A DNA stretch of 64,000 bases from Verrucomicrobiota bacterium (GCA_049510295.1 JBEKZC010000005.1:17546-81545); one strand, 5' to 3'. Positions 1,730 through 61,627 are shown, counted from the stretch's first letter. Numbers and translations are program-made. Notes: generated by a model not told the origin, from the sequence alone.

Positions 1730-1840
1730 ATGATCAAACTTTCCCTTCCCTTCACCGAAGAAAAAATCCGGGCGCTGAAAGTCGGCGACGAGGTGCTGAT
1801 CTCCGGCGTCGTGTCCACCGGGCGCGGAATCGGGGGTTGA
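1730..1840 (+). pseudogene. orphan 5' fragment of the hydro-lyase beta-subunit gene (duplicate of 2885-2981)
   Basis: 97 nt starting exactly at an ATG match 2885-2981 with 9 mismatches. It encodes MIKLSLPFTEEKIRALKVGDEVLISGVVSTGRG, then diverges and stops at 1840. Confidence 0.85.
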
Positions 1841-1844
1841 AAAA

Positions 1845-2324
1845 ATGGAATCAGTTTACATTGAGACGAGTGTGGTGAGTTATCTGGCGGCGCTGGCCAG
1901 CCGGGACTTGATTGTTGCGGGACATCAACAGGTGACGCGTGACTGGTGGGAGAATCGCCGCGCAAAATTCACATGTTTCATTTCGCATGTCGTGCTGGAT
2001 GAGGCGCGGGACGGAGACGCGGCGCAAGCGGCGTTGCGCTTGCAGGCGCTGGAAGGCTTTCCCAAGCTGGCGGCGACGCCCGAAGCCGAGCGGCTGGCGG
2101 TGGCTTTTCTGCAGGGTGTTCTGCCGGTAAAAGCAGCACGGGATGCCGCCCATCTGGCAATTGCCACGGTTGGCAAGGTCAAGTATTTATTGACATGGAA
2201 CTGCAATCATCTGGCAAACGCGCAGATTTTGGATCGGCTTGAGCCGATTGTCACAGCCGCCGGCTTCAAACTGCCAAGAGTTTGCACTCCGGAGGAATTA
2301 ATGGGAGTTTCAAGGTATGAATGA
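1845..2324 (+). CDS. PIN-domain (VapC-like) putative toxin
   Basis: 159 aa. The N-terminus is YIETSVVSYL and the C-terminus is YLLTWNCNHLAN, typical of PIN/VapC-family proteins. Its stop overlaps the next ORF by 8 nt. Confidence 0.7.
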   Translation: MESVYIETSVVSYLAALASRDLIVAGHQQVTRDWWENRRAKFTCFISHVVLDEARDGDAAQAALRLQALEGFPKLAATPEAERLAVAFLQGVLPVKAARDAAHLAIATVGKVKYLLTWNCNHLANAQILDRLEPIVTAAGFKLPRVCTPEELMGVSRYE

Positions 2325-2529
2325 CGATCCGATTGTAGAAGAAGTGCGACGCGTTCGAGATAAACTGGCGCGCCAGTTTAACTACGATATCCACGCCATT
2401 TTCGCCGACTTGCGAACGCGCGAGCGCGTGGAGGACCCGGCTCATCCTCTCGTGAGGGACGCAAGCGAATGGGCGGAAAGCCGGGAAAACGCACTGGTGC
2501 TCCGCGACCAGCCTAAACCGAAGGGCTAG
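2317..2529 (+). CDS. small protein with a DPIxxE..R.KL module (putative partner of the PIN protein)
   Basis: 70 aa, translationally coupled to the PIN gene. It shares its N-terminal module (DDPIVEEVRRVRDKLARQ) and its C-terminal LVLRDQPKPK tail with the next ORF. Confidence 0.5.
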   Translation: MNDDPIVEEVRRVRDKLARQFNYDIHAIFADLRTRERVEDPAHPLVRDASEWAESRENALVLRDQPKPKG

Positions 2530-2536
2530 AATAGTC

Positions 2537-2866
2537 GTGACAGCCGATCCAATTCTTTTGGAACTTGAAGCCGTTAAAGAACGTCTGGCGGCGGAAGCGG
2601 GCGGCGACTCGCGGCGTTTCCTCGATCAGATGGAAGCGTGGGCGGTGGAGCATCCGCACGCCGGGCCGGTGGTGAATTCGCCGGAGGAGTTGCAGGTGCG
2701 ATTACGGGCGCGCGAGGCTGCCGAACCGCCGCCACCGCAGGGCAAGCCGTATCGGGTTTATGATCCGATCATCGCCGAGGTGCATCGGACGCGCGAGAAA
2801 CTCCAGCGCGAGCGGCAGGCCGAAACTTTGATTTTGAAGGACGAACCGCCGCGTAAGAAACATTGA
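2537..2866 (+). CDS. small protein carrying two DPIxxE..R.KL modules (paralogue of 2317-2529)
   Basis: 109 aa. It has ADPILLELEAVKERLAAE at the N-terminus and YDPIIAEVHRTREKLQRE near the C-terminus, and ends LILKDEPPRKK. Confidence 0.5.
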   Translation: MTADPILLELEAVKERLAAEAGGDSRRFLDQMEAWAVEHPHAGPVVNSPEELQVRLRAREAAEPPPPQGKPYRVYDPIIAEVHRTREKLQRERQAETLILKDEPPRKKH

Positions 2867-2884
2867 GGTGGATCAAAGATTACC

Positions 2885-3460
2885 ATGATTAAACTTTCAT
2901 TTCCCTTCACCGAAGAAAAAATCCGGGCGCTGAAAGTCGGCGACGAGGTGTTGATTTCCGGTGTCGTGTTTACCGGACGCGACGCGGTCCACAAGTATTT
3001 GCACGAGGGCGGCAAGCTGCCGCCGGGTGTGAATTTTCGCGACGGGATTCTTTATCATTGCGGCCCGGTCGTGATGAAGCAGGACGACGGTTCTTGGAAA
3101 GCCACCGCCGCCGGTCCGACGACTTCAATTCGCGAGGAGCCGTATCAGGCGCATATCATCAAGGAATTCGGCCTGCGCGGGGTCATCGGCAAGGGCGGCA
3201 TGGGTGACCGGACGCTGGCGGCATGCAAGGAATTCGGCTGCGTGTATCTGCACGCGGTCGGCGGCGCGGCGCAAGTGCTGGCCGATTGCATCAAAAAGGT
3301 GCGCAACGTCTATCTGATGGAAAAGTTCGGTGCGCCGGAGGCCATCTGGGAATTTGAAGTGGCAGATTTCCCCGCCGTTGTCACGATGGACTCGCACGGC
3401 AATTCGCTGCACAAGGAAGTCTTTGCCATGAGCCAGGCGGAACTGGCGAAAAGACTTTAA
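2885..3460 (+). CDS. Fe-S hydro-lyase beta subunit (class I fumarate hydratase C-terminal domain / L(+)-tartrate dehydratase beta type)
   Basis: 191 aa with GPTTSIREEPY and VIGKGGMG..AVGGAAQ motifs typical of the FumA-C/TtdB family. No alpha-subunit gene lies upstream in this window. Confidence 0.85.
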   Translation: MIKLSFPFTEEKIRALKVGDEVLISGVVFTGRDAVHKYLHEGGKLPPGVNFRDGILYHCGPVVMKQDDGSWKATAAGPTTSIREEPYQAHIIKEFGLRGVIGKGGMGDRTLAACKEFGCVYLHAVGGAAQVLADCIKKVRNVYLMEKFGAPEAIWEFEVADFPAVVTMDSHGNSLHKEVFAMSQAELAKRL

Positions 3461-3517
3461 ATAAGGAAACCAAGAGGGCAGGAGAATAATCTCCTCATGG
3501 TTTCATGGATTCCTTAT
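3461..3517 (+). terminator. nested hairpin downstream of the hydro-lyase gene
   Basis: ATAAGGAAACCA (3461-3472) pairs with TGGATTCCTTAT (3506-3517). An inner GGAGAataaTCTCC hairpin sits between them, and an A/T-rich tail (taaaattt) follows. Confidence 0.35.
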
Positions 3518-3559
3518 TAAAATTTGAAATTGCATTCGCGCGTGGCGTATTTATCCCGC
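3517..3559 (-). pseudogene. orphan copy of the last 43 nt (stop + 13 codons) of the lipoate-ligase-like gene
   Basis: ttaaaatttgaaattgcattcgcgcgtggcgtatttatcccgc matches 5679-5721 with 3 mismatches, in the same orientation. Confidence 0.8.
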
Positions 3560-3660
3560 CCCGGAATCACGACGATTCCGAGTTTACTTGTCGTGGTATG
3601 AATTCCATTGCATGCTCGGTTCGGATCGAAACCGCGTGTACGGGCTGATTGTGAATTTCC

Positions 3661-5637
3661 ATGAAAAATATTCGTTGGATGGCAGCAGTTCGCGGGTTGG
3701 CCGTGGCCGGCATGTTTCTTTACGTGTTTTCCCGGTTTGTCCCCTGCAGTTCAGTTGATGATTACCCGATCATTGATGATATTGACAACGCTTGGGCGCA
3801 GGCTCTGCATATTGCCTTCAGCCGGCATTGGCAGTTCGGCCAGGACATTGTTTTTACCTACGGTCCTTGGGGATTCCTAGCCAGAGGCTATTATCCCACG
3901 ACGTATCCGGTTTCCGTGATCGTGTGGGTGATGCTGTCACTGGTTTTTTTATGCGCGGGTTGGCGGCTGGCGTGTCATCTGTCGGACAACCGGCTGTTTT
4001 CCTGGCTCTGGTTGATCGGTTTCACCGGCGTGGCCAGCATTCCGGTCGGGAATGATTTTGACGTCCGGTTGGTTGCCTGGGTTGTGCTGCTGTTGTTCCT
4101 GCATTTTTTTGTGGAGAAAGGCGCGTTCACGGCGACGCAGGCCATGCTGGTGGTGTCACTGGGCTGGTTGAGCCTGGTCAAGTTCACCGGCTTGATGGAA
4201 TCCGTGCTGGTGGTGGCCCTCATTGCGGTGGACAATATCTTCCGTCACCGGCGGTTTCCGTGGATTGTGCCGTTATGGGCGGCCAGTCTGCTGGGCTTTT
4301 GGGTCATGGCCGGACAGCATTTGAGTTCGTTCGGGCCGTACCTGAGCAATTCCTGGCAAATCACCAGCGGTTATACGGAAGCGATGATGCGAACCGGCAG
4401 AACGGAAACCTGGGATGTCAGCGGTTTCCTGTTGCTGGCGGTGCTGCTGTGTACGATGACCGGCGGTGTTGCCTGGGCACGCCTCCGGTTTTGGGGGGCG
4501 CTTCCCCTGGCTGGTTTGGGAGGAACCCTGTTCATCGTTTTCAAACAAGGTTATGTCCGGCAAGACCGGCATGAGGTTGCCGCCGTGATGTCACTTTTGA
4601 TCATCTCTCTGGCGTGTCTGGCGCTGGCCGGGCCGGCAAAGGGGCGAAAAATGAGGCAGGCCCTGCTTCTGTTGGCGGGTTCCGTCCTGATGGCCTCGTC
4701 CGTGTTCGGGTACTGGCTCCCAGGCAATGGGCTGTGGACGCAGTGGGCCGGGACATTCAAACCCAGCAACCTGATGGGTCCAGTCACTGGCGTGTTTACC
4801 GGACATTTGCGAAGTGATTACGAGAAAAATCTCGCGACGATACGGGAGGAATATCCCGTGCCACCGATGAAAGGAGGAGCGGACCTCTATTCCTGTTTTC
4901 AAACCATCCTTTTTGCGCACGGGTTGCCCTATCAACCACGACCGGTCATTCAGAGTTATTCCGCCTACACGCCGGAACTGGCCAGACTGAATGCCGCCCA
5001 CCTGCAGACGGACCGCGCGGCCGGCAATCTTTTGTTTGCGATAGAGCCAATTGACGGTCGTTTTCCCGCATTGGATGATGGTCTTTCCTGGCCGGAATTG
5101 TTGACCCGATACGACCTGCGGGGCACTTCGGACGCCTTGGGAACATATTTGTTCCTGTCGCGGTCGGCGGCACCGCGGGAATATCACCTGACCCCGCTCC
5201 AGGATACGTCGGCCCGTTGGGGAGAACCCGTCACGCCTCCTTCCGCCACCGCCGGTCCGATCTGGGTTGAAATTGAGATAAAAAAAACCCTGATCGGGAC
5301 GGTGGTTTCGGCGCTTTACAAACCCCCGGTGTTGGTGCTGACCGTGTCCCTGCGGGATAACGGGCAACAAGACTTTCGCATGGTTCCCGCCATGGCCCGG
5401 GGCGGATTCCTGTTGTCGCCGGTGATCGGCGACAACCAGGCTTTCGCTGCGCTTGCCTCGGCGGATGGACAACGCGACCTGGCCGGCCAGGAAGTGATGT
5501 CCATGACCGTCCTGGCCGATACCCGATCTTATTCAACGATTTGCTATCAATCGCCGATGGCAGTCCGGTTTTACCGCCTGGATTTTCCCCGGCAGGATTT
5601 CAGAATGGACTGGCCGGTGAAACCAGCGGAACAGTGA
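3661..5637 (+). CDS. large polytopic membrane protein with a C-terminal soluble domain, function unknown (GT-C-like architecture)
   Basis: 658 aa. It has many hydrophobic segments in the first ~400 aa and a ~250-aa hydrophilic C-terminus. No catalytic motif was recognised. Confidence 0.55.
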   Translation: MKNIRWMAAVRGLAVAGMFLYVFSRFVPCSSVDDYPIIDDIDNAWAQALHIAFSRHWQFGQDIVFTYGPWGFLARGYYPTTYPVSVIVWVMLSLVFLCAGWRLACHLSDNRLFSWLWLIGFTGVASIPVGNDFDVRLVAWVVLLLFLHFFVEKGAFTATQAMLVVSLGWLSLVKFTGLMESVLVVALIAVDNIFRHRRFPWIVPLWAASLLGFWVMAGQHLSSFGPYLSNSWQITSGYTEAMMRTGRTETWDVSGFLLLAVLLCTMTGGVAWARLRFWGALPLAGLGGTLFIVFKQGYVRQDRHEVAAVMSLLIISLACLALAGPAKGRKMRQALLLLAGSVLMASSVFGYWLPGNGLWTQWAGTFKPSNLMGPVTGVFTGHLRSDYEKNLATIREEYPVPPMKGGADLYSCFQTILFAHGLPYQPRPVIQSYSAYTPELARLNAAHLQTDRAAGNLLFAIEPIDGRFPALDDGLSWPELLTRYDLRGTSDALGTYLFLSRSAAPREYHLTPLQDTSARWGEPVTPPSATAGPIWVEIEIKKTLIGTVVSALYKPPVLVLTVSLRDNGQQDFRMVPAMARGGFLLSPVIGDNQAFAALASADGQRDLAGQEVMSMTVLADTRSYSTICYQSPMAVRFYRLDFPRQDFRMDWPVKPAEQ

Positions 5638-5678
5638 AATGATTTTGCCTTTTCGCCACATGAAGGTTGCGGCTACGG

Positions 5679-6422
5679 TTAAAATTTAAAATTCCACTCG
5701 CGCGTGGCGTATTTATCCCGCGCCAGAGCAAAAATCTTTTCCGTTAAAAAACCTTTCAATGGTTCTTCCGCCTTCCAGGCCTGTCGTAACGCCGCCTTTA
5801 CTTCATTCGCCGGCATGTTCAAATTGGTCAGAAATTCGGTGTGCGCGCGGTGCTCCCGGTAATCGGGCTGCTTCGATGGCATCGGCAAAAGTTCACCGAT
5901 GAGCGCGAGGCCGGAGTCCAGCAGGAATGTTCCGTGAAAAAGCAGGAAGTGTTTGCGGCGGCGCTGGGAGTTGCCGGAAAATTTGCGGTCGCCGATGGCG
6001 AGATCGGTGTGACCGCGCACGGCAATTTCGGGTCTTGGGTCCCGGCTCCTGGATTTGGGCAAGAGGCTTTGCATCGCCGCGCGGTTGCGTTCCATGATGA
6101 ACTGGTTGGCGATGCTGATGCTGTGGAGTGGGCCGTCGGCGGTAATTCGCAGAACCAGCGTGTAGTTGAGGCAGCCGGGTCCTTGCACCACGGTGCCCCC
6201 GCCGGAACAGCGTCGCAGAACCGGGATGCCGCGCGTTTCGCACGCCGCGACGTTCACTTCTGCCGCCACCTTGTTCGCGTAGCCGACGACGACGAAAGGT
6301 TCGCGCGGTTCCCAGAAACGCAGCACCTCGTCGCCGGCACCGGTTTCCGCGGCGTCGAGCAGCACCTCGTCGCCGGCCAGGTTTTCGGCGGGCGAGGGGA
6401 GCGTCAGATCGAGTAATTTCAT
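5679..6422 (-). CDS. lipoate-protein ligase / octanoyltransferase family protein (BPL_LplA_LipB domain)
   Basis: 247 aa with LRFWEP..PFVVVGY...RRCSGGGTVVQGPGCLNYTLV. It is divergent from aceE, which fits the function. Confidence 0.8.
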   Translation of the reverse strand: MKLLDLTLPSPAENLAGDEVLLDAAETGAGDEVLRFWEPREPFVVVGYANKVAAEVNVAACETRGIPVLRRCSGGGTVVQGPGCLNYTLVLRITADGPLHSISIANQFIMERNRAAMQSLLPKSRSRDPRPEIAVRGHTDLAIGDRKFSGNSQRRRKHFLLFHGTFLLDSGLALIGELLPMPSKQPDYREHRAHTEFLTNLNMPANEVKAALRQAWKAEEPLKGFLTEKIFALARDKYATREWNFKF

Positions 6423-6516: not shown

Positions 6517-9192
6517 GTGAGTATTGAGAAAAAGGAAATTCACGGGTCGGGTGACAAATGGGCGGAGTCGCTGCAGTCCGTCTTCGATCTGGCCCTGGAA
6601 AACCAGGGACCGGAACGGACGGCGCAATTGCTGAGAAAACTCGCCGACCGTCTGCGCGCCTCGCAGGACGGGTTGCCGCGCGGTTTTAACACGCCTTACG
6701 TCAACACGATTCCGCCGGAGCAACAGCTGCCGTTTCCCGGCGACTGGCAGATGGAGCGCCGGATCAAGAGCTACATCCGCTGGAACGCCATGGCGATGGT
6801 GGTCAAGGCCAACTCCACCACCAACGTTGGCGGCCACATTTCCACCTACGCCTCGGCGGCGACGCTTTACGAGGTTGGATTCAATCACTTTTTCCGCGGA
6901 CGCACGGAGAATTTTCCAGGCGACATGGTTTATTTTCAGGGTCACGCCGCGCCGGGCATTTATGCGCGTGCGTTTCTCGAAGGCCGTTTGGACGAAAAAC
7001 ATCTGCAAAATTTTCGTCAAGAACTCGCCGCCGGCGGCGGGTTGTCGTCGTATCCGCATCCGTATCTGATGCCGGAGTTCTGGCAGTTCCCGACGGTTTC
7101 CATGGGGCTTGGCCCGCTCCTGTCCATTTATCAGGCGCGGTTTAATCGCTATCTTCAGGCGCGCGGTCTGGCCAAATGGACGGAGGAACCAAAAGTCTGG
7201 TGTTTTGTCGGCGACGGCGAATCGGACGAGCCGGAAACGCTCGGTTCGCTCACACTCGCGTCGCGCGAGAACCTCGACAACCTCATCTGGGTTGTGAATT
7301 GCAATTTGCAGAGACTGGACGGCCCCGTGCGCGGCAATGGCAAAATCATCCAGGAACTCGAAGCCGCATTCCTAGGCGCCGGCTGGAACGTCATCAAGCT
7401 CATTTGGGGCAGTGATTGGGACGATTTGCTTGCGCGCGACAAGTCCGGCCTGCTCGTCAAGCGCATGGAAGAGGCGGTGGATGGCGATTACCAGAAGTAT
7501 TCCGTCGAGCCGGGCAGCTACACGCGCCGGCATTTCTTCGGCAAATATCCCGAACTGCTCGAACTGGTGAACCACCTCACCGACGACCAGATTCGCAAGC
7601 TGTTGCGCGGCGGCCATGACACGCGCAAAGTCCATGCCGCCTACAAAGTGGCGATGGAGCACCAAGGCCGGCCGACGGTGATTTTGGCCAAAACGGTGAA
7701 AGGCTATGGCCTTGGCGAAGCGGGCGAAGGCCGCAACATTTCGCATCAGCAGAAAAAGATGAACGAGAAGGAACTGCGCGAATTCCGCGCGCGGTTCAAC
7801 ATCCCGATCAGCGACGACGTCATTGCCGAGACGCCGTTTTATCGTCCGCCGGCGGACAGTCCGGAGACAAAATATCTGCTCGAGCGACGCAAAATGCTCG
7901 GCGGCTTTTTACCCGCGCGCACGGTCAATCCCGGTTCGCCGGCACTCGACGTGCCCAAGCTCGATTTCTTCGCCGAATTTTTCAAAGGCTCGAGCACGGA
8001 AGTTTCGACGACGATGGCGTTTGTCCGGCTGATCAGCGTTTTGCTGCGGCACAAGGGTTTGAGCCGAAACATCGTGCCCATCATTCCCGACGAGGCGCGC
8101 ACGTTCGGCCTCGACGCGCTGTTCAAAGACATCGGTATTTACTCGTCCAAAGGTCAGGTTTACGAGCCGGTGGACAGCAGTTCATTGCTTTACTACAACG
8201 AAAAGAAGGACGGACAGATTCTCGAAGAAGGCATCACCGAGGCCGGTTCAATGGCGTCGTTCATTGCGGCAGGCACGTCTTACGCGACCCACGGCGTGCC
8301 GATGGCGCCGTTTTACATTTACTACTCGATGTTCGGCCCACAGCGCGTCGGCGACTTGTTCTGGCTGGCGGGTGATATCCGGGCGAAGGGCTTTTTGCTT
8401 GGCGCGACGGCCGGTCGCACCACGCTCAACGGAGAAGGACTCCAGCATCAGGACGGCCACAGCCTGCTTCATGCCGGCACCGTGCCGACGTTGCTGGCCT
8501 ACGATCCGGCGTTCGCGTACGAAATCGCGGTCATTGTGGCTGACGGCCTGCGGCGGATGTATGCCGAAGGTGAGGACATTTTTTATTATCTCACGCTCTG
8601 CAATGAAAATTATCCCATGCCGCCGATGCCGGCGGGTGTCGAGGACGGCATCTTGAAAGGGTTGTATAAATTCAAGCCCGGGCCGGAAGACAGAAAGTTC
8701 AAGGCCCACATCTTTGGCAGCGGGACAATCATCAACTCAGCGCTCAAGGCACAGGAAATCCTGGCAGAACGCTACGGCGTGTCGGCTGATGTGTGGAGCG
8801 CGACGAGCTACAAACTGCTCCGCACCGACGCGCTGCGGTGCAAACGCTGGAACATGTTGCATCCGACGCAGCCACCGAAGAAATCCTACGTGGAGACGTT
8901 GCTGGCGAAAGAGCAGGGTGTCTTTGTCGCGGTTTCGGATTACATGCGGTTGGTGCCTGACCAGATTGCACCGTGGGTGCCGGGCGGCTTGATGACGCTG
9001 GGCACGGACGGCTTTGGCCGCAGCGACACCCGCGCGCGGTTGCGCCGATTTTTTGAAGTGGACGCGGAATCCACCGTCGTCGCCACGCTCTTCGCGCTGG
9101 CGGAGAAAGGTCTCGTGGAACGACAGCTTGTCGCAAAGGCCATCAAAGATCTCGGCGTTGATCCGGAGAAGATTCAACCGCAAATTATCTAA
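6517..9192 (+). CDS. aceE: pyruvate dehydrogenase E1 component, homodimeric type
   Basis: 891 aa with YFQGHAAPGIYARAFLEGRL, a GDGESDEPE ThDP-binding region, and AceE-typical length and C-terminus. Confidence 0.95.
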   Translation: MSIEKKEIHGSGDKWAESLQSVFDLALENQGPERTAQLLRKLADRLRASQDGLPRGFNTPYVNTIPPEQQLPFPGDWQMERRIKSYIRWNAMAMVVKANSTTNVGGHISTYASAATLYEVGFNHFFRGRTENFPGDMVYFQGHAAPGIYARAFLEGRLDEKHLQNFRQELAAGGGLSSYPHPYLMPEFWQFPTVSMGLGPLLSIYQARFNRYLQARGLAKWTEEPKVWCFVGDGESDEPETLGSLTLASRENLDNLIWVVNCNLQRLDGPVRGNGKIIQELEAAFLGAGWNVIKLIWGSDWDDLLARDKSGLLVKRMEEAVDGDYQKYSVEPGSYTRRHFFGKYPELLELVNHLTDDQIRKLLRGGHDTRKVHAAYKVAMEHQGRPTVILAKTVKGYGLGEAGEGRNISHQQKKMNEKELREFRARFNIPISDDVIAETPFYRPPADSPETKYLLERRKMLGGFLPARTVNPGSPALDVPKLDFFAEFFKGSSTEVSTTMAFVRLISVLLRHKGLSRNIVPIIPDEARTFGLDALFKDIGIYSSKGQVYEPVDSSSLLYYNEKKDGQILEEGITEAGSMASFIAAGTSYATHGVPMAPFYIYYSMFGPQRVGDLFWLAGDIRAKGFLLGATAGRTTLNGEGLQHQDGHSLLHAGTVPTLLAYDPAFAYEIAVIVADGLRRMYAEGEDIFYYLTLCNENYPMPPMPAGVEDGILKGLYKFKPGPEDRKFKAHIFGSGTIINSALKAQEILAERYGVSADVWSATSYKLLRTDALRCKRWNMLHPTQPPKKSYVETLLAKEQGVFVAVSDYMRLVPDQIAPWVPGGLMTLGTDGFGRSDTRARLRRFFEVDAESTVVATLFALAEKGLVERQLVAKAIKDLGVDPEKIQPQII

Positions 9193-9398
9193 CTTTCGCC
9201 CGGGGTTGGTCATCTATTGGAAAGACCGCCGCCTGTCGATGAGAGGCTTGCTACCTGGAATGCGCTTCCGATAGCTGTTAATAATCCGGCAAATCCGGAA
9301 ACGCCCGCGGGAATTTTCTTTGACGGCCAGATTTTTTTCAACACGAACCTGTCAGACACCAATTGAAAGCACTCTTCAGGCTGGGAAAGCGAAGACTG

Positions 9399-11051
9399 TT
9401 ATCGGGGCACTTCTTTGATGATAAGATCGTCGTTTTGCAGGATGACTTTCCAATCTTGGACCACCGGCGTCAGGTGTTTATCATACGTGTCGCGTTGAAT
9501 ATGAATTTGCCCTGGCTTGCTGAATTGCACTGCATGGTGCAATGGCGTCTCGCTGACCATCACCAGTTTGGTGTAACCTAATTCTTTGATTCGTGCCAGT
9601 GCTGTGGGGTCTTCGAGAAATTTGGTGTCCCAAATGGTCAATCCTTTTCTGCCCGAAAGAATCAACTGCTCTCCGCCCCAGCCGCCGCCTTGGATCAACA
9701 ACTTGTCATCCGCTTGAGTATGTTCCCGAATGAGGCCAGCAATTCGGGCCGATCCCGGGTCGGTAATCAAGACGGTATTCATCGCCACCAAACCTTGCCC
9801 CGTGGCAGCTAACAGGAAAACCATGATCGCCAGAAGCATTGGACCCCGTTGTTGGGATTGTCTGAACCCAAAGATTTCCTCAAGTCGCATGGCTGCTTGC
9901 GCACTGAGTAGTGCTACCGGAGGAGTAAACATGAGGTAATAATGTATATGAATCAATACCAAGTGGGTAAATACGAAAGTGGTCAGGACAGCGCTAGCCA
10001 ACCAGAGTCGGCCAAGCCGGTCACGAGAACTAATAAGCGACCATAGGGGCAAGGCCGCAAGGACGTAGCTCCCAAACACGGCATTGAACAGACGCCATCC
10101 GCCCTTGATCCAGTTCCAAGGGTTCAGATTATAGGACCAAGTGCCAAAATACCACGTTGCCATTCCCGAACCTTTTGAAACTCGCAGGTCGGTGAATGGA
10201 AATTCCGCGCGCGCAATACAGGCGTTGCAGTATCTGGTCCAGATGAGAAAAACCAGGAGCGTGACAAGCCCGATTGATCCCAACTGAAGCCACCGGCGTA
10301 CAGATTTACGCCCGTGGAGAAGCAACAAAAAAAAGCTGGCGACGCCTGTGCAGAATAAAAACGGCAGTTTTGTTACCGCTGCCAATCCCCCAAAAATAAA
10401 GGCAGGAATCCACCATATCCACCTACCAGTGCGCACCAAACCGTCGGCAAAATAAAGAAAACAGATGGCAAACACTTCGCAACTGATGTCTGTGCCTCCC
10501 TGCCCCGCCATCATAAAAACCAGCGGTTGAGCACAATAGAACAAGAGTGCCCACCAGGCACCGCTTTCTCCCAAGTAATTGCGGGCCAATTGAAACAACG
10601 GCCAAAGCCCGCAGGCAAAGAAGAGCAAGGAGGCAACGTTGGCCCATCCGAACCATATTCCAAACATCTTGAACAAGACCGCCGTCAGCGCCTGCCAGAC
10701 CGGCAGTTCCTGCGGTGTGGGTTCATTGTTGGCGTTGAAGCCCACGATGACAGGTCGAAGCAGGTTGATCCTGTTCTTGGCAAATTCGAGCGCTGTTCCC
10801 AAGTGCTGATCGCGATAATCGTTATACCCCAATCCGCTCCCAATCAAATGATAAGCACAGATGCATAAAACCAGCGCCATGACGATGGGGACAAAAAGCC
10901 GGCGTGATGATGGGACCTGCCAGCCGGTGGAAACTAGATTCGCCACATTCAGTGTCTCTTGTGCAGACCTGGCAACCGTGAGCAGGTTTTCGGACTGGGG
11001 CTCCAGTGTGGACGTTTTCATTGGATAATACTCAGCCATTAACTGCGCCAT
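9399..11051 (-). CDS. GT-C type membrane glycosyltransferase-like protein (ArnT/PMT-like)
   Basis: 550 aa with ~10 TM segments, an N-terminal loop YNDYRDQHLGTALEFAKN, and a C-terminal soluble domain. GC is lower than in the neighbours (by eye). Confidence 0.5.
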   Translation of the reverse strand: MAQLMAEYYPMKTSTLEPQSENLLTVARSAQETLNVANLVSTGWQVPSSRRLFVPIVMALVLCICAYHLIGSGLGYNDYRDQHLGTALEFAKNRINLLRPVIVGFNANNEPTPQELPVWQALTAVLFKMFGIWFGWANVASLLFFACGLWPLFQLARNYLGESGAWWALLFYCAQPLVFMMAGQGGTDISCEVFAICFLYFADGLVRTGRWIWWIPAFIFGGLAAVTKLPFLFCTGVASFFLLLLHGRKSVRRWLQLGSIGLVTLLVFLIWTRYCNACIARAEFPFTDLRVSKGSGMATWYFGTWSYNLNPWNWIKGGWRLFNAVFGSYVLAALPLWSLISSRDRLGRLWLASAVLTTFVFTHLVLIHIHYYLMFTPPVALLSAQAAMRLEEIFGFRQSQQRGPMLLAIMVFLLAATGQGLVAMNTVLITDPGSARIAGLIREHTQADDKLLIQGGGWGGEQLILSGRKGLTIWDTKFLEDPTALARIKELGYTKLVMVSETPLHHAVQFSKPGQIHIQRDTYDKHLTPVVQDWKVILQNDDLIIKEVPR

Positions 11052-11153
11052 TAACTGCGACGTTTTGTGGCACTTCTTTATGTTCTTACCACTTCGGGGA
11101 CGGAAGTCGGCTGTTCAGCCGTCGGCTGGTGAGGTGAACTTCCAGGGCCAGGC

Positions 11154-11573
11154 TTAATTACGGCGCAGGGGACAGCGGCCGGCAACCCGGTTGGCGCAGA
11201 TGGGCGGCAGGAGGCTTCCAGAGGCGACCGTCAGCGCTAAAAATTCGTCGGTGATGCGCAGCACCAATTTCACACGGTCGGTCACCACAAGCTTGTGATA
11301 CAAACGTTCGCAGTAAGTGTGGATGGTGTGCGGCGAAACGCCATAATGGGCGGCAATGGCAAATTCGGTGCGGTCGTCAAAAACGTCTTTGATAATTTGA
11401 AGCTCCCGTCCGGAAAGCTTGAGGCTGCGGGCAATTTCATCCCAAGCCTGTTTGGAAAACATCGCCGCACCCAAAGGGCATCGCAACTTATGAGTGACCG
11501 GCGAGTCGGTCTTGGCAAGTGAATACACCCTGGCCGCGCTCATGGCTGGCTCCCCGCCAGTGTGGACTGGCAA
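11154..11573 (-). CDS. LuxR-family HTH transcriptional regulator (stand-alone)
   Basis: The C-terminal region LSGRELQIIKDVFDDRTEFAIAAHYGVSPHTIHTYCERLYHKL is a GerE/LuxR HTH. The start codon is uncertain. Confidence 0.7.
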   Translation of the reverse strand: MPVHTGGEPAMSAARVYSLAKTDSPVTHKLRCPLGAAMFSKQAWDEIARSLKLSGRELQIIKDVFDDRTEFAIAAHYGVSPHTIHTYCERLYHKLVVTDRVKLVLRITDEFLALTVASGSLLPPICANRVAGRCPLRRN

Positions 11574-11770
11574 TTTGGTTTCATAGCCGCTTTCAGGAAT
11601 CGCAAGGCCATCTGCGTGGCGTCGCTACGGCACCCTCTCGAAGCCATGCCTTGAGTCAACGATTCCCCCCAACTTACTGAATTTCGAGCGGATACTATCC
11701 TCCTCTTATTGTTGGGTCAAATGGTTTCTGCACACGAACAGGGTGCATCCCGGTACTGCGCCAACCCGAC

Positions 11771-11886
11771 AGCTACACTTGGAGCGCCGATTTCCGAATC
11801 GGCACGAGGTTCACTGTTCGCGGAACACGCCGGGCCGGAGGCCGGCGCTCCGGTGACAGTTGCGCTCACAGAGCGCCGCTACAAAA
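11771..11886. repeat. composite palindromic (REP-like) element
   Basis: The outer stem is GGAGCGCCG (11781-89) with CGGCGCTCC (11843-51). Inner hairpins are GCCGATttccgaATCGGC and GCGCTCacagAGCGC. The end CGCCGCTACAAAA recurs at 59441-59453. Confidence 0.7.
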
Positions 11887-11958
11887 AATGCGGAATAGTG
11901 CAATTATGAACCGCACTTGGTATGAGCTTGGCGCGGACAAAAGCTGCCCGCGCAATGG

Positions 11959-13386: not shown

Positions 13387-13976
13387 CAGTTGCCTCCTGA
13401 TCTGGCGGCTGGCATCCCAGCCTGACCATCACGAGGCGGCAGTATCTCCAACCGTAGCGTCGCCTTGCCGGCGTTGTCGCTGTCCAATGTAAGTACGAAA
13501 CGGACATCATGCTCTTGCAACCATTGCTGGCTTGGATTGAATTCGATCCGCATAATGTCCCAGCCGTTATTGATGACTTTGTCAGCCGGGGCAACGTACA
13601 TCCGCCTTGGATACAAAGCGTAACTTATCCGATAATAAATAAAACTCAGTGGATTTTCGACGACCGGGTTTGTCTTTGCGTCCCCGGCAAGCTTCAACAG
13701 CATGTTGCCATTGCCCGTCCGATCTGCAATCCGGTCGGATTGTTCATACTGCATCATTGCCGCGCGGCTGGCCGTGGATTGCGTTGCAACAGCACAGATC
13801 TGGTGCAGCTCCGATTCCGGCCGCAATTGCAACCAGCACAGATGAACCAGCACCAACAGCACGACTCCCCATGCTGCGTACTGGAAACTTCTGCCATCAG
13901 CAGGAATGAACCGGTTCAAAATCATCTCACGTTTACCGCTATTCAGGCTGGAACCTGGCCGCCTGACCCGGCTCAT
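13386..13976 (-). CDS. hypothetical single-pass membrane protein
   Basis: The listed ORF was trimmed to the ATG at 13976, one nt after the murU stop (TAAaATG). One TM segment (AAWGVVLLVLVHLCWL) is present. Confidence 0.5.
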   Translation of the reverse strand: MSRVRRPGSSLNSGKREMILNRFIPADGRSFQYAAWGVVLLVLVHLCWLQLRPESELHQICAVATQSTASRAAMMQYEQSDRIADRTGNGNMLLKLAGDAKTNPVVENPLSFIYYRISYALYPRRMYVAPADKVINNGWDIMRIEFNPSQQWLQEHDVRFVLTLDSDNAGKATLRLEILPPRDGQAGMPAARSGGN

Positions 13977-13977
13977 T

Positions 13978-15886: not shown

Positions 15887-15895
15887 TTCGGAGAA

Positions 15896-16568: not shown

Positions 16569-16582
16569 GCGCGGCTGCGGCT

Positions 16583-16658
<76 letters not shown>

Positions 16659-17174
16659 CTTTTATTCAATAGAATAGGCCACTTTGTAAGTTCTCCCGAC
16701 AAGTTCCCCAAAAAAGTTTTTTTGTTTGGCCTACTTTTGGCCTATTCTAGCTTTCCTTTGCCTTTTCAGGAATGCCGCTCAAAGTTCATCTAGGCCAAAA
16801 TGCGTGACGCTATTCTGACACGTTATTTGTCGGCAACTGTCGGCAACTCTCGACGGTTTTTCACACCGTTGCCGGCCTCGTTTGCTCGGCAAAAAAGCTG
16901 TCGGCAGCGGTTCCCATTCGAGATGCGGAGGAAGTCGAGCGAATACAGCAGGCAGCTTGCACAGTCTCCCCAAGCCCCACGTGACTGAACTACACCAGCC
17001 GAACTGAAACAAATTTACTTTTCCCACGCCGATTTGGCACGAATTTTACCCGCCATATTGAATCATGATTCAAGTTGACCTTACAGCCATTCACTGAGCA
17101 CCATATTCCAAGTTTAGCTTTTTAACCTGAGTGGAAACAATCAACCAAAAAGATTCGTTTATAAAATCAAACCT

Positions 17175-17858
17175 ATGAAACTGACCAAATTCGCCTTCAC
17201 AGCCATCGTGGCGGCGCTCGCGCTATGGGTATCCAACACCAAAGCAAGCACAGGAATTCCAGTATTCGAAAAGCTCAACTTCAGCCTGACCGTCGTGCAA
17301 CAAAGCTTGGACTATTCGAATTCCGCCCCATCCACCTACCTCTCCACCGTCGAAACCGCAAAAATCACCAGCAAGGACCTTTTGAGTTTTTTGGCGACGG
17401 CCTTTAATACAAACTGGCCTACGGGCGCACAACTGGCGCTAAATAATCTTGATAAGCATATTTTTGTCGTGGACAAAACCGGCACGAATCCTGTTTTTGA
17501 CGTCAGCATCGGCATCAATGTCGGCGACACTAATGTCGTTTACTTTAGCTTTGATTCTAACCCCACTGTTTTTAGGGGCAAAGAGGTGCTCAAGACTGGC
17601 GGAAGCCGGAAGGAAGATCACTTTGGGATGATTTTCTTTTTTCTCTTCAGTGAACAGAATGGAGTCACCACCACCGACCTCAGTTTTCAAGGTTTCGACG
17701 CCGCCAAGCTCGTTGAGAGTTTCGGTAGCACGAAGGAGACATTCGGGGTGCATGATGCGGCACTTGTCGGCGGCGACGGTACGCTGAATAGCAAGTGGAC
17801 CGTGGTTAAGGGCAAGGTGACCGGCTTCGGGAAGTCGAAAGTTCTGCCTCCTACATAA
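17175..17858 (+). CDS. hypothetical secreted protein
   Basis: 227 aa with the signal peptide MKLTKFAFTAIVAALALWVSNTKA. No recognisable domain. Confidence 0.6.
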   Translation: MKLTKFAFTAIVAALALWVSNTKASTGIPVFEKLNFSLTVVQQSLDYSNSAPSTYLSTVETAKITSKDLLSFLATAFNTNWPTGAQLALNNLDKHIFVVDKTGTNPVFDVSIGINVGDTNVVYFSFDSNPTVFRGKEVLKTGGSRKEDHFGMIFFFLFSEQNGVTTTDLSFQGFDAAKLVESFGSTKETFGVHDAALVGGDGTLNSKWTVVKGKVTGFGKSKVLPPT

Positions 17859-18315
17859 AGTCTGCAAAAAACGACTTAAAGTTGGTGCGATACGGGTTTT
17901 GCCAACTTGACACACCGCACAGGTGAGAAGCACTTGGTTTCGGACGTCGCGTTGAAACGAAAGTTCGATCTCATTTCACAGACCGTTACCGGTAGTATTC
18001 TCACCCTCGGCGGAATCAAAGCGCGGCCTGGGTTAATTCAAGTGCGACGGGCGGGAATCACTGCACGGATCACTTGATTGCGGGCACGAGCCGAGTTTTG
18101 GGCGTAAAGTGTAACACAGTTTGGCGTCATTTGCAGTTGCCGGTTTCCGGCTGTCCTGAGTCATCCCGGGCGATTCGGGCGCGCCCTGGGGCAATTCTGC
18201 GCACGGCGGGCATCGTGGCGCGTCCGGCACGGCGGCAAATGTCTCCTTTGCTGCTCGGTTTTCGCTCTGAACTGCCCGGCAATGGTTCGTGCGAGCGGCG
18301 AGACGGCAACCCGAA

Positions 18316-18853
18316 TCACAGGCTGGTTTGAGTATAGAGTTTGACCACTTTAGCCACTATTTGCTCGGCTGCCAGTTGGATTGCTTCATCCGTAGTGCCG
18401 GCAAAGGCTGATTTACCGGACTTACCCTTCGGCTTCAAATACCTCAATTTGATTTCCAGAACTTAAATCAGAAACAGTCACATGAACCAAAATGCGCGCC
18501 TGGCCAGCCAAAGCCCCAGCCCATAATCGCGCATTGTCGGAAACCTTGTTGATCTCCTTTATGTCAGCTGCAACCTTTATTCCGCTGCCTGAATTGACGT
18601 CCGCTTTATTCCCGCTCACGCTCGTGAAGTATTGTTTTTCCCTCAAACCAGAAACGATCAAGTCACCAAGCAGATGTTTTTCAGTTTCCAAATCACCCAA
18701 AGAACCGGTGGATTCCACGAAGATAAAGTCCATTGAGACCAGCTTGCTGATCAAAACCGGGCTGTCATTCTTTACCACACCCGACGGCGACGCGCAGCCA
18801 ACAAGGTTCAACAGCACGAACAAAATCGCTGCCAGGTTAAATACACATTTCAT
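18316..18853 (-). pseudogene. lipoprotein gene (DUF4410-like?) with an apparent 1-nt frameshift near the 3' end
   Basis: The lipobox is MKCVFNLAAILFVLLNLVGC. The ORF stops at 18422. Skipping one nt (18424) continues the frame for 35 more codons (KSGKSAFAGTTDEAIQLAAEQIVAKVVKLYTQTSL*) ending at 18316. Confidence 0.5.
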
Positions 18854-19257
18854 TATGCTTGCCAGTGGTTTTGAGTTAAATCCGCTGCATAATAATGCTT
18901 TCACGAATCATTCCAAGGTGTCAAAAGCATAAATTTTGGGCCACTTTTTGATATGGTTCAGGCTTGCGCGATAGCGCGGCGTCCAGAAGCGGAGCACCAA
19001 TTTCAGCATCAACGCGGCGTAGCCACCTAAAAGCGGTTTTGAATTGAATCAGCGGCTGGCGTCTGTCCGGCGGCTTGTGCTCAATCGCGCCGGGTGCGTT
19101 TTGTTTCCTCTTTCAAGTCTTTTTGCAGCCGGGCAAAGGCGGCTTCAAAGGCGTCGTGATCTTTCCAGTTGGAAAAGTCAGGGATGAAATACTCGCGCAG
19201 CTCAACGGCCAAATCTTTGCCGATGTCCGAATCAAAACACTTCCAATCCTTCAACGT

Positions 19258-19302
19258 CTGAAAATCCTTGTGTCGGCGGTTCAATTCCGCCCCCAGCCAC
19301 CA
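19258..19302 (+). repeat. duplicated 3' 45 nt of tRNA-Phe (attR-like)
   Basis: ctgaaaatccttgtgtcggcggttcaattccgcccccagccacca is identical to 16614-16658. Confidence 0.95.
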
Positions 19303-48184: not shown

Positions 48185-48195
48185 AAGTCATTACC

Positions 48196-51773: not shown

Positions 51774-51862
51774 GATGGCTGTCCGGTATTGGATCGTACG
51801 AAACTTGCCCTGGCGATTGCAAGCCGGCTGGCATTGCGGTAATGGGCCAGTTTGTATTTCCG

Positions 51863-51912
51863 GGTGGGGCGAGGCTACCGACGAGCCGGCTCGCGAGCAC
51901 GCTCGCCCCACC
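51863..51912. repeat. GGTGGGGCGAG...CTCGCCCCACC palindromic repeat (copy 1)
   Basis: It has the same termini and GGCT(A/C)CCGACGAG core as 53935-54006. Confidence 0.8.
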
Positions 51913-52024
51913 AAAATGACCCTAAACGGGTCCTGGGTATTGACTCAAGTTTCAACCAACTAGGGAAAATTTCCATTCGCAAATTGGCCGAACGCGGCTA
52001 GATTTCCAGCGCGTTCGCAAAGGA

Positions 52025-53878: not shown

Positions 53879-53934
53879 TCGGTCGCTGCTCCGCACCTAC
53901 AAATGGATTTTGAAAACACGCCTTGGAATGCAAG

Positions 53935-54006
53935 GGTGGGGCGAGGCTCCCGACGAGTCGGAGAGAAGTCAAAATGCTTGCGGCTCGCGAGGACGCTCGC
54001 CCCACC
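53935..54006. repeat. GGTGGGGCGAG...CTCGCCCCACC palindromic repeat (copy 2)
   Basis: See 51863-51912. Confidence 0.8.
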
Positions 54007-54055
54007 AAATCAGAGTAGGGATTGATTTTCCCCGGCGAATATTTATTTTCCGGCC

Positions 54056-59522: not shown

Positions 59523-59903
59523 TCACAACCTCACGGACTTGCGCGGGACGCGATTTGGCCGGGACGATTTTTGAGACTTCTTGCTGTGGGCGGCGATTTG
59601 AATCGCACGGTGCGCCCATGCCACCAGTTCTTCCCGGTTTTCCAGCACGTCCGGCGGCACTTCGTGATAACCCATCGTCATCACGCGCCCCTTCATCTCG
59701 TAGGTGAACGGCGGCATCCCACGCGCCGTGTAATCCGCCTGCGACTGCGCGTCCGTTTTGAAAAACAGCCGGCCCTCGTCCAAAATCCCGAAGAACCGCC
59801 CGCCGGAATATAACCCATGCGCGCCGAACATCGCCTTGGCATGCACGTCCGGCAGCGCGCTTAACTGGTCGAGCACAAATTCTTTGAAGGAGTCGTCAGG
59901 CAT
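59523..59903 (-). CDS. TfoX N-terminal-domain protein
   Basis: MPDDSFKEFVLDQL...KAMFGAHGLYSGGRFFGILDEGRLFFKTD. Confidence 0.8.
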   Translation of the reverse strand: MPDDSFKEFVLDQLSALPDVHAKAMFGAHGLYSGGRFFGILDEGRLFFKTDAQSQADYTARGMPPFTYEMKGRVMTMGYHEVPPDVLENREELVAWAHRAIQIAAHSKKSQKSSRPNRVPRKSVRL

Positions 59904-60191
59904 AATGCAAACGTGGGAGAAGATTTAACGCAAAGAACGCGACCTGTCACGCCGTAGCCGGAAGCGAAGGTGGAAGGTGCAAGCCAAAAAGCAATTGCGG
60001 TAACTCTGGGAACATTGCCATTGCAGCGGGTGGAGTTGTTTGTCGGTTGCCTTAAAGCTGGTCGGGATATCAGCCTTTGCTCTGAAGCTTCGGTGCGACT
60101 GGTTGGCTTCTCCAGAGGTGTGCGCCATGGTTAAAAAATATGTATTACCTGAAGGAATACAGGAAGTTACGCAAATTGCCAATAATTCGCC

Positions 60192-60220
60192 TTGTCTTTT
60201 TCTGGAACATGTCCTATACT
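60192..60220 (+). promoter_or_regulatory. candidate promoter of receiver gene 1 (near-leaderless)
   Basis: TTGTCT (60192-97), a 17-nt spacer, then TATACT (60215-20), with the ATG at 60233. The homologous position before receiver gene 2 has diverged (CATGCT). Confidence 0.4.
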
Positions 60221-60232
60221 TAGACAGTTGTT

Positions 60233-60706
60233 ATGATATTAAATGTTCCAACTCAAAAAATCCTGGTTGTTGATGACAATCCGATAATCCTGAAGGTCTT
60301 GTCTTCGGCCTTCAAAGCCAGAGGCTACGAGGTGTTTGCCGCCGTTGACGGTCCCGAGGCCTTCATCATCGTGAGCCGGGAACAGCCGGACCTCATTTTG
60401 CTCGATATTTTCTTTCCGCCGGATCTTTTCCAAAGCGGCAACACTTGGGATGCGTTTAAGATTATGAACTGGCTCCAACGCATGGGCGGACCCCAAGCCA
60501 GGCACATCTCCGTAATCATCATGTCCGGCGCTGACCCGGGGGAAATCAAGGATCGTTGTCTGGCCGCCGGCGCGCTGGACTACTTCCAAAAACCGATCCA
60601 GATGCCCGAGTTGCTGGACGCCATTCAGCAAATCTTCTGCCCGGCTGTGAGCGAAGTGCCTCTTGAATTGGCGGCCATTTCAAATTCCGACAGCCTGCGC
60701 CTTTAG
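60233..60706 (+). CDS. stand-alone CheY-like receiver protein (copy 1)
   Basis: ILVVDDN, DLILLDIFFPPD (phospho-acceptor Asp), IIMSG and FQKP. Confidence 0.9.
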   Translation: MILNVPTQKILVVDDNPIILKVLSSAFKARGYEVFAAVDGPEAFIIVSREQPDLILLDIFFPPDLFQSGNTWDAFKIMNWLQRMGGPQARHISVIIMSGADPGEIKDRCLAAGALDYFQKPIQMPELLDAIQQIFCPAVSEVPLELAAISNSDSLRL

Positions 60707-60805
60707 CCAAACATCCGGTGGCAATGCGCTCAACGGGGCGGGGGCAAATTGGCAATAATTTGCCTTCTTTTTTTCTGGAGTATTTGTCATGCTGAGGCCG
60801 TTGTT

Positions 60806-61279
60806 ATGGTGTCAAGTGTTCCCACCAAAAAAATTCTGGTTGTTGATGATAATCAGATAATCCTGAACGTCTTGTCGTCGGCCCTTAAAGCCGGAGGCTA
60901 CGAGGTGTTTGCCGCCGTTGACGGTCCCGCAGCCTTCACGGTCGTGCTTCAGGAACAGCCGGACCTCATCCTGCTCGATATTTTCTTTCCGCCCGATATC
61001 TTCCAGAGTGGCAACACTTGGGATGCGTTTCAGATTATGCACTGGCTCCAACGCATGGGCGGACCCCAAGCCAGCCGCACCCCCGTATTCGTCATGTCCG
61101 GGGCTGAACCGGGGGAAATCAGGGATCGCTGTCTGGCCGCCGGCGCAGTGGACTACTTCCAAAAACCGGTCAGGATACCCGAACTGCTGGACGCCATTCA
61201 GCAAATCTTCCGCCCGAGTGTGAGCGATGTGCCGCTTGAATTGGCGGCCATTTCAAATTCCGATCGCTTGCGCCTCTAG
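60806..61279 (+). CDS. stand-alone CheY-like receiver protein (copy 2, tandem paralogue)
   Basis: About 80% aa identity to copy 1 over the full length (by eye). The duplication unit of ~573 bp includes the upstream region. The start was moved to the ATG at 60806. Confidence 0.9.
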   Translation: MVSSVPTKKILVVDDNQIILNVLSSALKAGGYEVFAAVDGPAAFTVVLQEQPDLILLDIFFPPDIFQSGNTWDAFQIMHWLQRMGGPQASRTPVFVMSGAEPGEIRDRCLAAGAVDYFQKPVRIPELLDAIQQIFRPSVSDVPLELAAISNSDRLRL

Positions 61280-61285
61280 CCAAAC

Positions 61286-61337
61286 CTTCGGCACAACGCG
61301 CCCAACTGGTCGAGGGAAAATTCTTTGAAGGAGTCGT
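61286..61337 (-). repeat. copy of the tfoX 5' coding region lacking the ATG
   Basis: aactggtcgagggaaaattctttgaaggagtcgt differs by 3 mismatches from 59862-59895. Confidence 0.85.
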
Positions 61338-61563
61338 TAACCCCAATGGGGTTGCGTCATTCAGCCCAACGTTGCCCCGAATGCTTTCGGGGCTACGTTG
61401 GGTTCACGGATCAAAACGGAATCAACCCTGACAGGGTTGAATCAACCTGTGAAATAAAGGGATGCAACCCCGATGGGGTTGGAAATGATTTTGGAACGGA
61501 TGACCCAGGGTAGCGCGTTCCGCACAACCCTGGGCTGAGAGATGGAATCCCGTTGGGATTCTG
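61338..61563. repeat. cluster of at least 5 short hairpins (REP-like cluster)
   Basis: AACCCCaatGGGGTT, CCCAACGT..ACGTTGGG with inner CCCCGAAtgcttTCGGGG, CAACCCTgacAGGGTTG, CAACCCCgatGGGGTTG, ACCCAGGG..CCCTGGGC and GAATCCCgttGGGATTC. Confidence 0.8.
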
Positions 61564-61627
61564 GCCCGCACCTCCGGCAACGCCTCAACTGGTCGAGAAC
61601 AAATTCTTTGAAGGAGTCGTCAGGCAT
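61564..61627 (-). repeat. copy of the tfoX 5' end including the ATG
   Basis: A 41-nt core has 1 mismatch against 59863-59903. It encodes MPDDSFKEFVLDQL, then runs into the hairpin cluster. It sits 1 nt after the stop of the 61629-62147 gene. Confidence 0.9.

Follow-up and report, generated by a model that had tools for sequence, protein, structure and literature searches.

The window analysed here is a stretch of 64,000 nt (64 kb) from a Verrucomicrobiota bacterium of the Limisphaerales/Pedosphaera type (GCA_049510295.1 JBEKZC010000005.1:17546-81545), in which small gene cassettes are found at four loci between an intact gene and an orphan copy of one end of that same gene. The genes concerned are those for the beta subunit of a hydro-lyase (locus 1), a lipoate ligase-like protein (LplA, locus 2), tRNA-Phe (locus 3) and a TfoX_N-domain protein (tfoX, locus 4). 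At 4/4 loci the two copies form a direct repeat running from a gene-internal point to the gene end, the host gene stays intact while its orphan terminus closes the insert on the other side, and 1-3 accessory genes lie in between. This anatomy had been described by a first-pass annotation of the window, and self-comparison of the window found all four duplications where they had been placed. Its account of the cargo agrees with the annotation of open reading frames (ORFs) and Pfam domains, and its statement that no integrase or transposase is encoded in cis is upheld by Pfam, NCBIfam, tblastn and phmmer with an integrase of the clade, and catalytic motifs. The nearest genome found is a peat metagenome-assembled genome (MAG), SPRUCE 686 (locus L001; other loci used for comparison are numbered likewise), with AceE protein 92% and aceE DNA 88% identical to those of the window.

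At locus 1, the intact beta subunit gene of the TtdB/FumA C-terminal family (2885..3460, plus strand; PF05683, TIGR00723) is preceded by an orphan copy of its nt 1-97 at 1730..1826 (plus strand), which forms the outer boundary of the locus and retains ~25 nt of native upstream sequence (1705-1729). The second copy is the first 97 nt of the intact gene itself (2885-2981), and the repeat begins 3 nt ahead of the ATG, with 1727-1826 and 2882-2981 being 90% identical over 100 nt. The cargo (1845..2866, plus strand) comprises a VapC/PIN-like toxin gene (1845-2324), a 70-aa ORF (2317-2529) and a 109-aa ORF (2537-2866), and its homologues carry the source name VapC family toxins. An empty site is present in L001, with a single beta start, no cassette and no orphan; the 25 nt upstream match those upstream of the window orphan, and therefore the orphan is the original beta start. 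The two copies of the window are themselves uninformative on allele switching because L001 is too diverged. The VapC-like cassette also follows a beta copy in L181, L184 and L185. L186-189 have it in an unrelated context, with 79% nt identity to that of the window; in L186 it is flanked by a 138-nt direct repeat (5737-5874 and 6714-6850) that forms part of its own third small gene and does not represent a beta copy.

Locus 2 involves a 3' end, that of the intact LplA/LipB-type lipoate ligase-like gene (5679..6422, minus strand; PF21948). The repeat extends from the LplA stop codon inward (last codons and stop), and its two copies, the last 49 nt of the intact gene (5679-5727) and the orphan at 3517..3565 (minus strand) that marks the outer boundary, are 90% identical over 49 nt. 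Between them lies a gene for a 658-aa multi-pass membrane protein without any family match (3661..5637, plus strand), and a sequence resembling repetitive extragenic palindromes (REP family D18) adjoins the LplA-like gene at 5650-5680. Both the orphan LplA end and an orthologous membrane-protein gene are found in the window, L001 and L192/L193, whereas beta and LplA are immediate convergent neighbours at the empty sites of L011, L012, L184 and L199. Orthologues of the membrane protein in L001 and L192 have 62-68% protein identity versus 79-95% for flanking genes and are thus fast-evolving. Orphan LplA ends were found only in the lineage of the window and in L001 and L192/L193, while beta and tfoX orphans are widespread. 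In terms of aceE, L184 is 91.8% identical to the window at the nt level and has locus 2 empty and locus 1 filled, whereas L001 at 88% has locus 1 empty and locus 2 filled. Since the filled/empty pattern does not follow relatedness, precise loss or lateral exchange at loci 1 and 2 must, judging from these comparisons, have occurred among relatives. A diversity-generating retroelement was rejected at locus 2, as the mismatches (G/A, G/C, T/C, C/G, G/A) are not adenine-specific and no reverse transcriptase is present among the annotated ORFs of the window. The region between beta and LplA in L198 (11200-11900) contains a PDDEXK_3 gene bracketed by a diverged ~90-nt direct repeat, which does not correspond to a gene end.

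At locus 3, the intact tRNA-Phe(GAA) gene (16583..16658, plus strand; ARAGORN, Rfam) is followed by a 2.6-kb insert (16659..19257) encoding a 227-aa secreted protein (17175-17858, plus strand) and a DUF4410 lipoprotein (18422-18904, minus strand), and then by an orphan copy of the 3' 45 nt of the tRNA gene (19258..19302, plus strand), beyond which native downstream DNA follows. The repeat is 100% identical over 45 nt (16614-16658, an attL-type copy, and 19258-19302, an attR-type copy) and spans the anticodon loop to the CCA end. A repeat from the anticodon loop to the 3' end is the classical attachment (att) arrangement of tRNA-targeting integrases. GC content of the insert is 49.7% as compared to 56.1% for the window. 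In L192-L195, whose flanks are ~89% identical, tRNA-Phe is followed directly by the sequence found after the orphan in the window, thus providing an exact empty site and identifying 16659-19257 as a clean insertion. A 2.4-kb tyrosine-integrase element resides in tRNA-Phe in L002 (4983-7560), with an orphan 5' half (nt 1-40) and an intact tRNA-Phe beyond it; the orphan half stops in the anticodon loop, the region where the tRNA repeat of the window begins. This is a minimal integrase element with the 5' portion of the tRNA, the 3' portion being the usual one, and an AlpA-like gene comes after the tRNA. Within the locus 3 insert, no integrase remnant was detected by six-frame reading or by tblastn with the L002 integrase, and a 31-aa tblastn match at 18225-18317 (E=0.5) was not significant and was rejected as a remnant.

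Locus 4 is the most elaborate, with the intact TfoX_N-domain gene at 59523..59903 (minus strand; PF04993, nhmmer), whose first ~65 nt constitute copy A (59838-59906). The cargo (60171..61316, plus strand) contains two response-regulator genes (60233-60706 and 60806-61279) that form a 573-bp tandem duplication, 84% identical and with its junction in AAATT microhomology. Orphan copy B (61280..61348, minus strand) lacks the first ~9 nt and adjoins the stop codon of the second response-regulator gene, while orphan copy C (61562..61629, minus strand; ATG at 61627) lies directly after the stop of a 172-aa gene (61629-62147). Copies B and C are separated by a cluster of REP-like palindromes (61349..61561), with an equivalent cluster in L101. 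The three copies are 78-90% identical, copy C is identical to the L101 copy at 6874, and a fourth, partial copy (60707-60750) is found within the duplicated unit. As the duplication unit includes part of copy B, the duplication is therefore younger than the cassette.

Assembly artefact is ruled out for loci 1, 2 and 4 by 20 contigs, assembled independently from other samples, that are collinear and 99.7-100% identical over these loci. The inserts are fixed in this population, and no presence/absence polymorphism was observed in the 20 contigs at these three loci, the exact-protein look-up used favouring the same haplotype. This fixation, together with a locus 2 insert shared at 88% aceE identity, does not bear out the suggestion that the system is currently active. 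At the same time, the inserts are not fixed in all relatives, given the clean empty sites at loci 1, 2 and 3. A uniform self-BLAST scan of the window and 1.4 Mb of control loci revealed four repeat pairs of the gene-terminus kind in the window, a density of 6.25 per 100 kb, as compared to one in 431 kb of other Verrucomicrobia loci (0.23 per 100 kb) and one in 964 kb of loci of other phyla (0.10 per 100 kb). Such pairs are hence 25-60-fold denser in the window than in controls, which exceeds chance. That the recurrence goes beyond accident, as originally proposed, is further indicated by the mosaic of empty sites in species-level relatives at loci 1-3 and by the formation of arrays at the 5' ends of beta and tfoX in many related genomes.

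The arrays at the beta start are directly observed in several relatives. L181-L183 contain five co-oriented copies of exactly beta nt 1-97, and their four intervals hold four different toxin-antitoxin pairs (DUF3368-type, VapC-like, PIN and ParE). Other cargo (DUF4230, Fic, PemK, a 127-aa gene) is arranged alike in L184, L185, L196, L198 and L199, where the beta copy always ends in ...CACCGGGCGCG. Every beta copy found covers nt 1-97 regardless of cargo, and at least 10 different cargos, from distinct genomes, share the exact boundary at nt 97. The cassettes are compact, with cargo beginning 17-47 nt past nt 97 and the last cargo gene stopping 4-27 nt before the next ATG. Near-invariance is concentrated in a core at nt 17-69, and in beta and tfoX arrays alike the copy most distant from the intact gene is the most decayed. 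When one 43-aa orphan ORF was used as a query, 222 clusters of orphan beta starts were retrieved from public data; the best 120 of these are all ORFs of 33-72 aa, many labelled 'fumarate hydratase beta subunit'.

Arrays at the tfoX start were surveyed in 80 loci from a metagenome scan, with TfoX 72-93% identical to that of the window. In these loci, a profile of the first ~65 nt identified 150 copies, 80 in intact genes and 70 orphans, all 70 of the latter co-oriented with tfoX and nearly all extending from the ATG to ~nt 57-68. Their inner edges range over nt 51-70, and up to seven copies occur per locus, some of them downstream of tfoX. Cargo in these arrays includes response regulators, GH28 and PL4 pectin-degrading enzymes, an MFS transporter, DUF4412 proteins and unknowns. 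Near-invariant cores span nt 16-28 and 31-56, and the orphans are in frame for ~20 codons before a stop. Selection at the protein level was considered for these orphans and ruled out, since there is no codon-position pattern and Leu-to-Pro and Gln-to-Pro changes and early stops are present. In the pair L126 and L128, with flanks 96% identical, L126 carries two extra cassettes exactly at the tfoX start, while L128 is empty. In L126, the outer orphan is native throughout, both in its upstream sequence and in its allele (nt 1-70), while nt 1-66 of the intact gene belong to another allele. The rebuilt beta start of L199 diverges strongly from the orphan over nt 1-49 and is identical to it over nt 50-97. 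In these two cases, L126/L128 and L199, the crossover position appears as a native-to-foreign allele switch at the inner edge of the repeat.

With moderate confidence, we interpret each locus as the product of site-specific integration at an att site formed by a gene end, with cassettes accreting there through a recombinase acting in trans. A small circular element would carry its own version of the gene terminus, from the crossover point to the ATG, stop codon or CCA, and its recombination with the chromosomal gene would insert the cargo and rebuild an intact gene from the element-borne terminus, with the original terminus left behind as the orphan on the other side of the cargo. As further elements integrated at the rebuilt site, older cassettes would be pushed outwards and arrays would form. 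Cassettes without a recombinase might then be either decayed elements or units mobilised by recombinases encoded elsewhere, and for the 0.6-3 kb beta and tfoX cassettes the status of cis-mobilisable units is more likely than that of decayed elements. What is observed comprises the anatomy, the empty sites, the arrays, the lack of a recombinase in cis and, in two cases, the position of the crossover, whereas the class of the recombinase, its action in trans and the circular intermediate are inferred. Site-specific crossover at the inner edge is favoured because of the fixed extents of the repeats, their single orientation, the decay gradient and the two allele switches. The four att sequences are unrelated, and several recombinases are therefore implied rather than one system for gene termini.

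Several points weigh against this interpretation. Tyrosine and serine recombinases were sought in about 0.6 Mb (80 tfoX loci, seven distinct beta-array contexts and three 20-kb views within 0.2-0.8 Mb contigs), using phmmer with one seed integrase, tyrosine/serine regular expressions and Pfam on ~45 proteins. No recombinase in cis was found in the ~90 beta and tfoX array loci, phmmer and the expressions recovering only the L002 integrase plus one candidate expression match (L155, 13209-14321). Likewise, no integrase-bearing element was found at the same att site in the 80 tfoX loci or seven beta contexts, and the only one seen, that of L002 at tRNA-Phe, carries the other tRNA half. Exact-core scans of IMG/VR for phage or satellite carriers were empty for the beta, tfoX and tRNA-Phe sites. 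With one seed, a tyrosine/serine motif and ~45 Pfam proteins, other classes of recombinase could escape such a search. Had the elements once borne integrases, some intact versions should be present in these loci, and a simple story of decayed islands does not fit loci in which no recombinase was seen. In addition, the crossover position is read from only two natural pairs, and for integrase elements it is unusual to be as small as 0.6 kb or to have att identities of up to 97 nt.

The lack of any recombinase in cis across the ~90 loci is also what would be expected if the host RecA pathway were responsible, the main rival explanation, which we regard as rather unlikely. According to it, direct copies would recombine to release a circle with one copy and the cargo, which after transfer, for example by transformation, would re-insert in Campbell fashion at the gene end or at any copy, and general recombination and gene conversion would enlarge the arrays and reorder them, no dedicated recombinase being needed. 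This explanation is supported by the long near-invariant cores of beta and tfoX, by junction classes that recur at different positions of the arrays, positions downstream of tfoX among them, and by the mosaic of presence and absence among relatives, and it would make the fixed repeat boundaries a matter of inheritance. However, it leaves unexplained the origin of each first duplication and why four unrelated gene ends were involved; RecA acts poorly on repeats that span 45-49 nt with 90% identity, and in both informative cases the native/foreign switch lies at the inner edge and not within the repeat. Furthermore, tRNA-Phe has a direct integrase precedent in the clade. Independent one-off illegitimate events, homology-facilitated after DNA uptake or by local duplication followed by insertion and without any cassette system, are a still less probable account. 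In its favour, loci 2 and 3 each represent a single event, tfoX orphans do vary at their inner edges, and comparable single cases occur, though rarely, elsewhere (L010 and L039). For loci 1, 3 and 4 this account is already disfavoured, by a beta boundary at nt 97 shared among so many cargos and genomes, by the 222 orphan-beta clusters and 70 uniformly oriented tfoX orphans, and by a tRNA repeat that is exact from the anticodon loop to CCA. The case in L010 (9241-10214) is an independent instance of the same architecture in another Verrucomicrobia MAG, where a GlcD-like FAD oxidase gene has its 3' end duplicated (76 nt, 88%) around a 0.8-kb insert that contains a single 160-aa gene and no recombinase.

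The explanation originally advanced, one novel trans-acting system that recognises gene termini at all four loci, possibly with involvement of REP-associated tyrosine transposases (RAYTs) or a GIY-YIG nuclease, appears very improbable. It would account for one architecture at four loci within 64 kb at such an excess over controls and for the missing recombinase, and REP clusters do adjoin two of the junctions (5650-5680 and 61349-61561), as had been stated. Yet the repeats of the four loci are unrelated in sequence and form no hairpins, the single-stranded DNA folding no better than shuffled sequences (z = +0.3 to +2.5 for beta/tfoX and -0.9 to -0.5 for LplA). Moreover, the narrow distribution of LplA orphans as against widespread beta and tfoX orphans suggests separate histories. 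An attC-like or other structured site is ruled out by these shuffle-level folds, and Rfam finds only two tRNAs in the window. There is no convincing shared motif, the sole shared 9-mer, CGCGCCMGR, having been picked out post hoc. The motif or its complement occupies the inner edge in the orphan beta copy (1818-1826, minus strand) and in the intact LplA copy (5719-5727, plus strand), as well as nt 61-69 of most tfoX alleles of relatives. As a junction motif it was rejected, since the window has 13 sites when 8.5 would be expected and since divergence sets in before it in most tfoX orphans, and its recurrence is probably coincidence. REPs occur throughout intergenic DNA in general. That of the window contains at least two dispersed families of REP-like palindromes (sites at 25411-25541, 28392-28465, 41219-41331, 42505-42584, 48114-48192, 51862-51915 and 53934-54009), and relatives have families of their own, such as D2/D3/D6 in L101. 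The GIY-YIG pseudogene that had been noted nearby was also found (21702-21958, minus strand; in-frame stop and frameshift), but its intact 86-aa orthologue at the same position in L194 (5073-5333) is an ordinary neighbour gene. Neither the REPs nor this pseudogene shows a mechanistic link to the junctions.

Other variable DNA borders these loci. The hydro-lyase alpha gene lies to the left of the window, and the slot between alpha and the first beta copy is filled in the window by the 3' part of a 601-aa gene (45..1703, plus strand; Pfam) for a chimera of TIR, ORC-Cdc6-like and N6-methylase domains. L081 extends the window leftwards with the alpha subunit gene, the full chimera gene (7014-8819), the orphan beta start, the VapC-like cassette and beta. 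The slot holds a different defence-like gene in each relative, namely a TPR/Sel1 protein in L001 (2021-4300), an NPHP3_N-type NTPase in L184 (3754-5538), an SMC_N/AAA_15 gene with DUF4276 in L196 (8215-9989) and a pentapeptide-repeat protein in L198 (7915-9993); neither beta nor alpha repeats flank any of these genes or the chimera of the window. Around locus 3, a 7.4-kb block with glycosyltransferase, LuxR and APH genes (9193-16582) separates AceE from tRNA-Phe in the window, and a similar block past AceE in L001 (12719-21935) has no tRNA-Phe beyond it, synteny breaking at window position 16511. In L009, L011 and L012, tRNA-Phe lies within ~60 nt after AceE, and the native tRNA 5' half of L002 is still there.

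The first-pass annotation had held that the elements cannot be assigned to a described class, and this view has to be given up, since both gene-end replacement of the dusA type (PMC4482086) and accretion of cis-mobilisable elements (CIMEs; PMC5704250) cover their main features. In dusA islands, the gene end is swapped for an element-borne copy and the original end becomes the outer boundary (PMC4482086). Loci 1 and 4 have the same anatomy, with the 5' portion replaced, the old 5' end outermost and the gene functional, the difference being that dusA islands always have an integrase beside the site (PMC4482086) and none was seen in the ~90 loci here. The cassettes described here are 0.6-3 kb and form multi-copy arrays at their sites. 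The size of dusA islands is 5-170 kb. CIMEs are integrase-less att-flanked derivatives that accrete in tandem and are mobilised by the integrase of a related element (PMC5704250). Like CIMEs of the ICESt1 family at fda (PMC5704250), the present elements are att-flanked, lack integration genes and stand in tandem via att sites that include a gene end, and no integrase, excisionase or transfer genes were found between the att copies by Pfam, NCBIfam, tblastn/phmmer or motifs. However, CIMEs have easily found relatives with an integrase for the same site and demonstrated mobilisation, whereas the beta, tfoX and LplA cases are known from sequence alone. Arrays of partial tRNAs and degenerate integrase-less elements are described for islands of the tRNA/tycheposon type (10.1101/2020.12.28.424599). 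Locus 3 resembles these in its exact 45-nt duplication, which pairs an intact tRNA with a partial one across the insert, but the 2.6-kb element of the window has no detectable integrase remnant and the L002 element has the opposite tRNA half.

Functionally, the closest likeness is to integrons and clusters of attC sites lacking integron-integrases (CALINs; PMC4889954), which share co-oriented arrays of compact, mostly promoterless cassettes of 0.5-1 kb that are rich in toxin-antitoxin genes, contain no recombinase and are separated by a recombination site of 60-100 nt. In contrast, the repeat described here is the coding start of a housekeeping gene, with no hairpin and no R''/R' boxes of attC (RYYYAAC...GTTRRRY), and no IntI, attI platform or tyrosine recombinase is present in or beside the arrays, although IntI, attI and Pc are not needed for CALINs. 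Elements exploiting the Xer recombinases (IMEX; dif modules of Acinetobacter, PMC6449649) are likewise small modules, often with toxin-antitoxin genes, that use short sites and a host recombinase. Their 28-bp XerC/XerD sites alternate and are carried on plasmids, unlike the direct, chromosomal repeats of 45-97 nt here, which equal gene ends. No dif-like 11-6-11 palindrome was seen by eye in the beta and tfoX copies. Literature searches yielded nothing but papers on integrons and on integrative and conjugative elements, and in them no prior description of toxin-antitoxin arrays at a beta start or of arrays at a tfoX start was found. As far as found, both kinds of array thus appear undescribed, integron-like in function and with a gene's coding start as the repeat. 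The original interpretation is partly supported, in that the process recurs across the clade and no recombinase was found in cis. Against it, the elements belong to a known class, a single system is unlikely and current activity in this population is not borne out.

Tentatively, the arrays might represent an integron-like platform in Limisphaerales-type Verrucomicrobia, in which the first 60-100 nt of housekeeping genes (TtdB/FumA-type beta and TfoX_N) serve as the recombination site. Recombinase-free cassettes with toxin-antitoxin, defence, regulator and glycan-degradation genes would be inserted, stacked and exchanged at such gene starts by an unlinked recombinase or a hijacked host enzyme. 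As each cassette would bring a fresh gene start, the target gene would survive, and the orphan start would give the cargo a brief leader ORF. Should the loci prove to be nothing more than decayed islands, the finding would be an ordinary one. For annotation, the orphan ORFs of 33-72 aa named 'fumarate hydratase beta' (222 clusters) would be cassette boundaries rather than genes and may provide a simple marker. Provided that a trans-acting recombinase or a host enzyme builds the arrays, they would constitute a second natural solution to the integron problem of stockpiling small promoterless cassettes, and of exchanging them, at one fixed place in the chromosome, with the coding start of the gene itself as the site in place of a folded attC. 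This would explain part of the accessory-genome turnover, including that of toxin-antitoxin, defence and pectin-degradation genes, in the abundant uncultured Verrucomicrobia of peat and soil.

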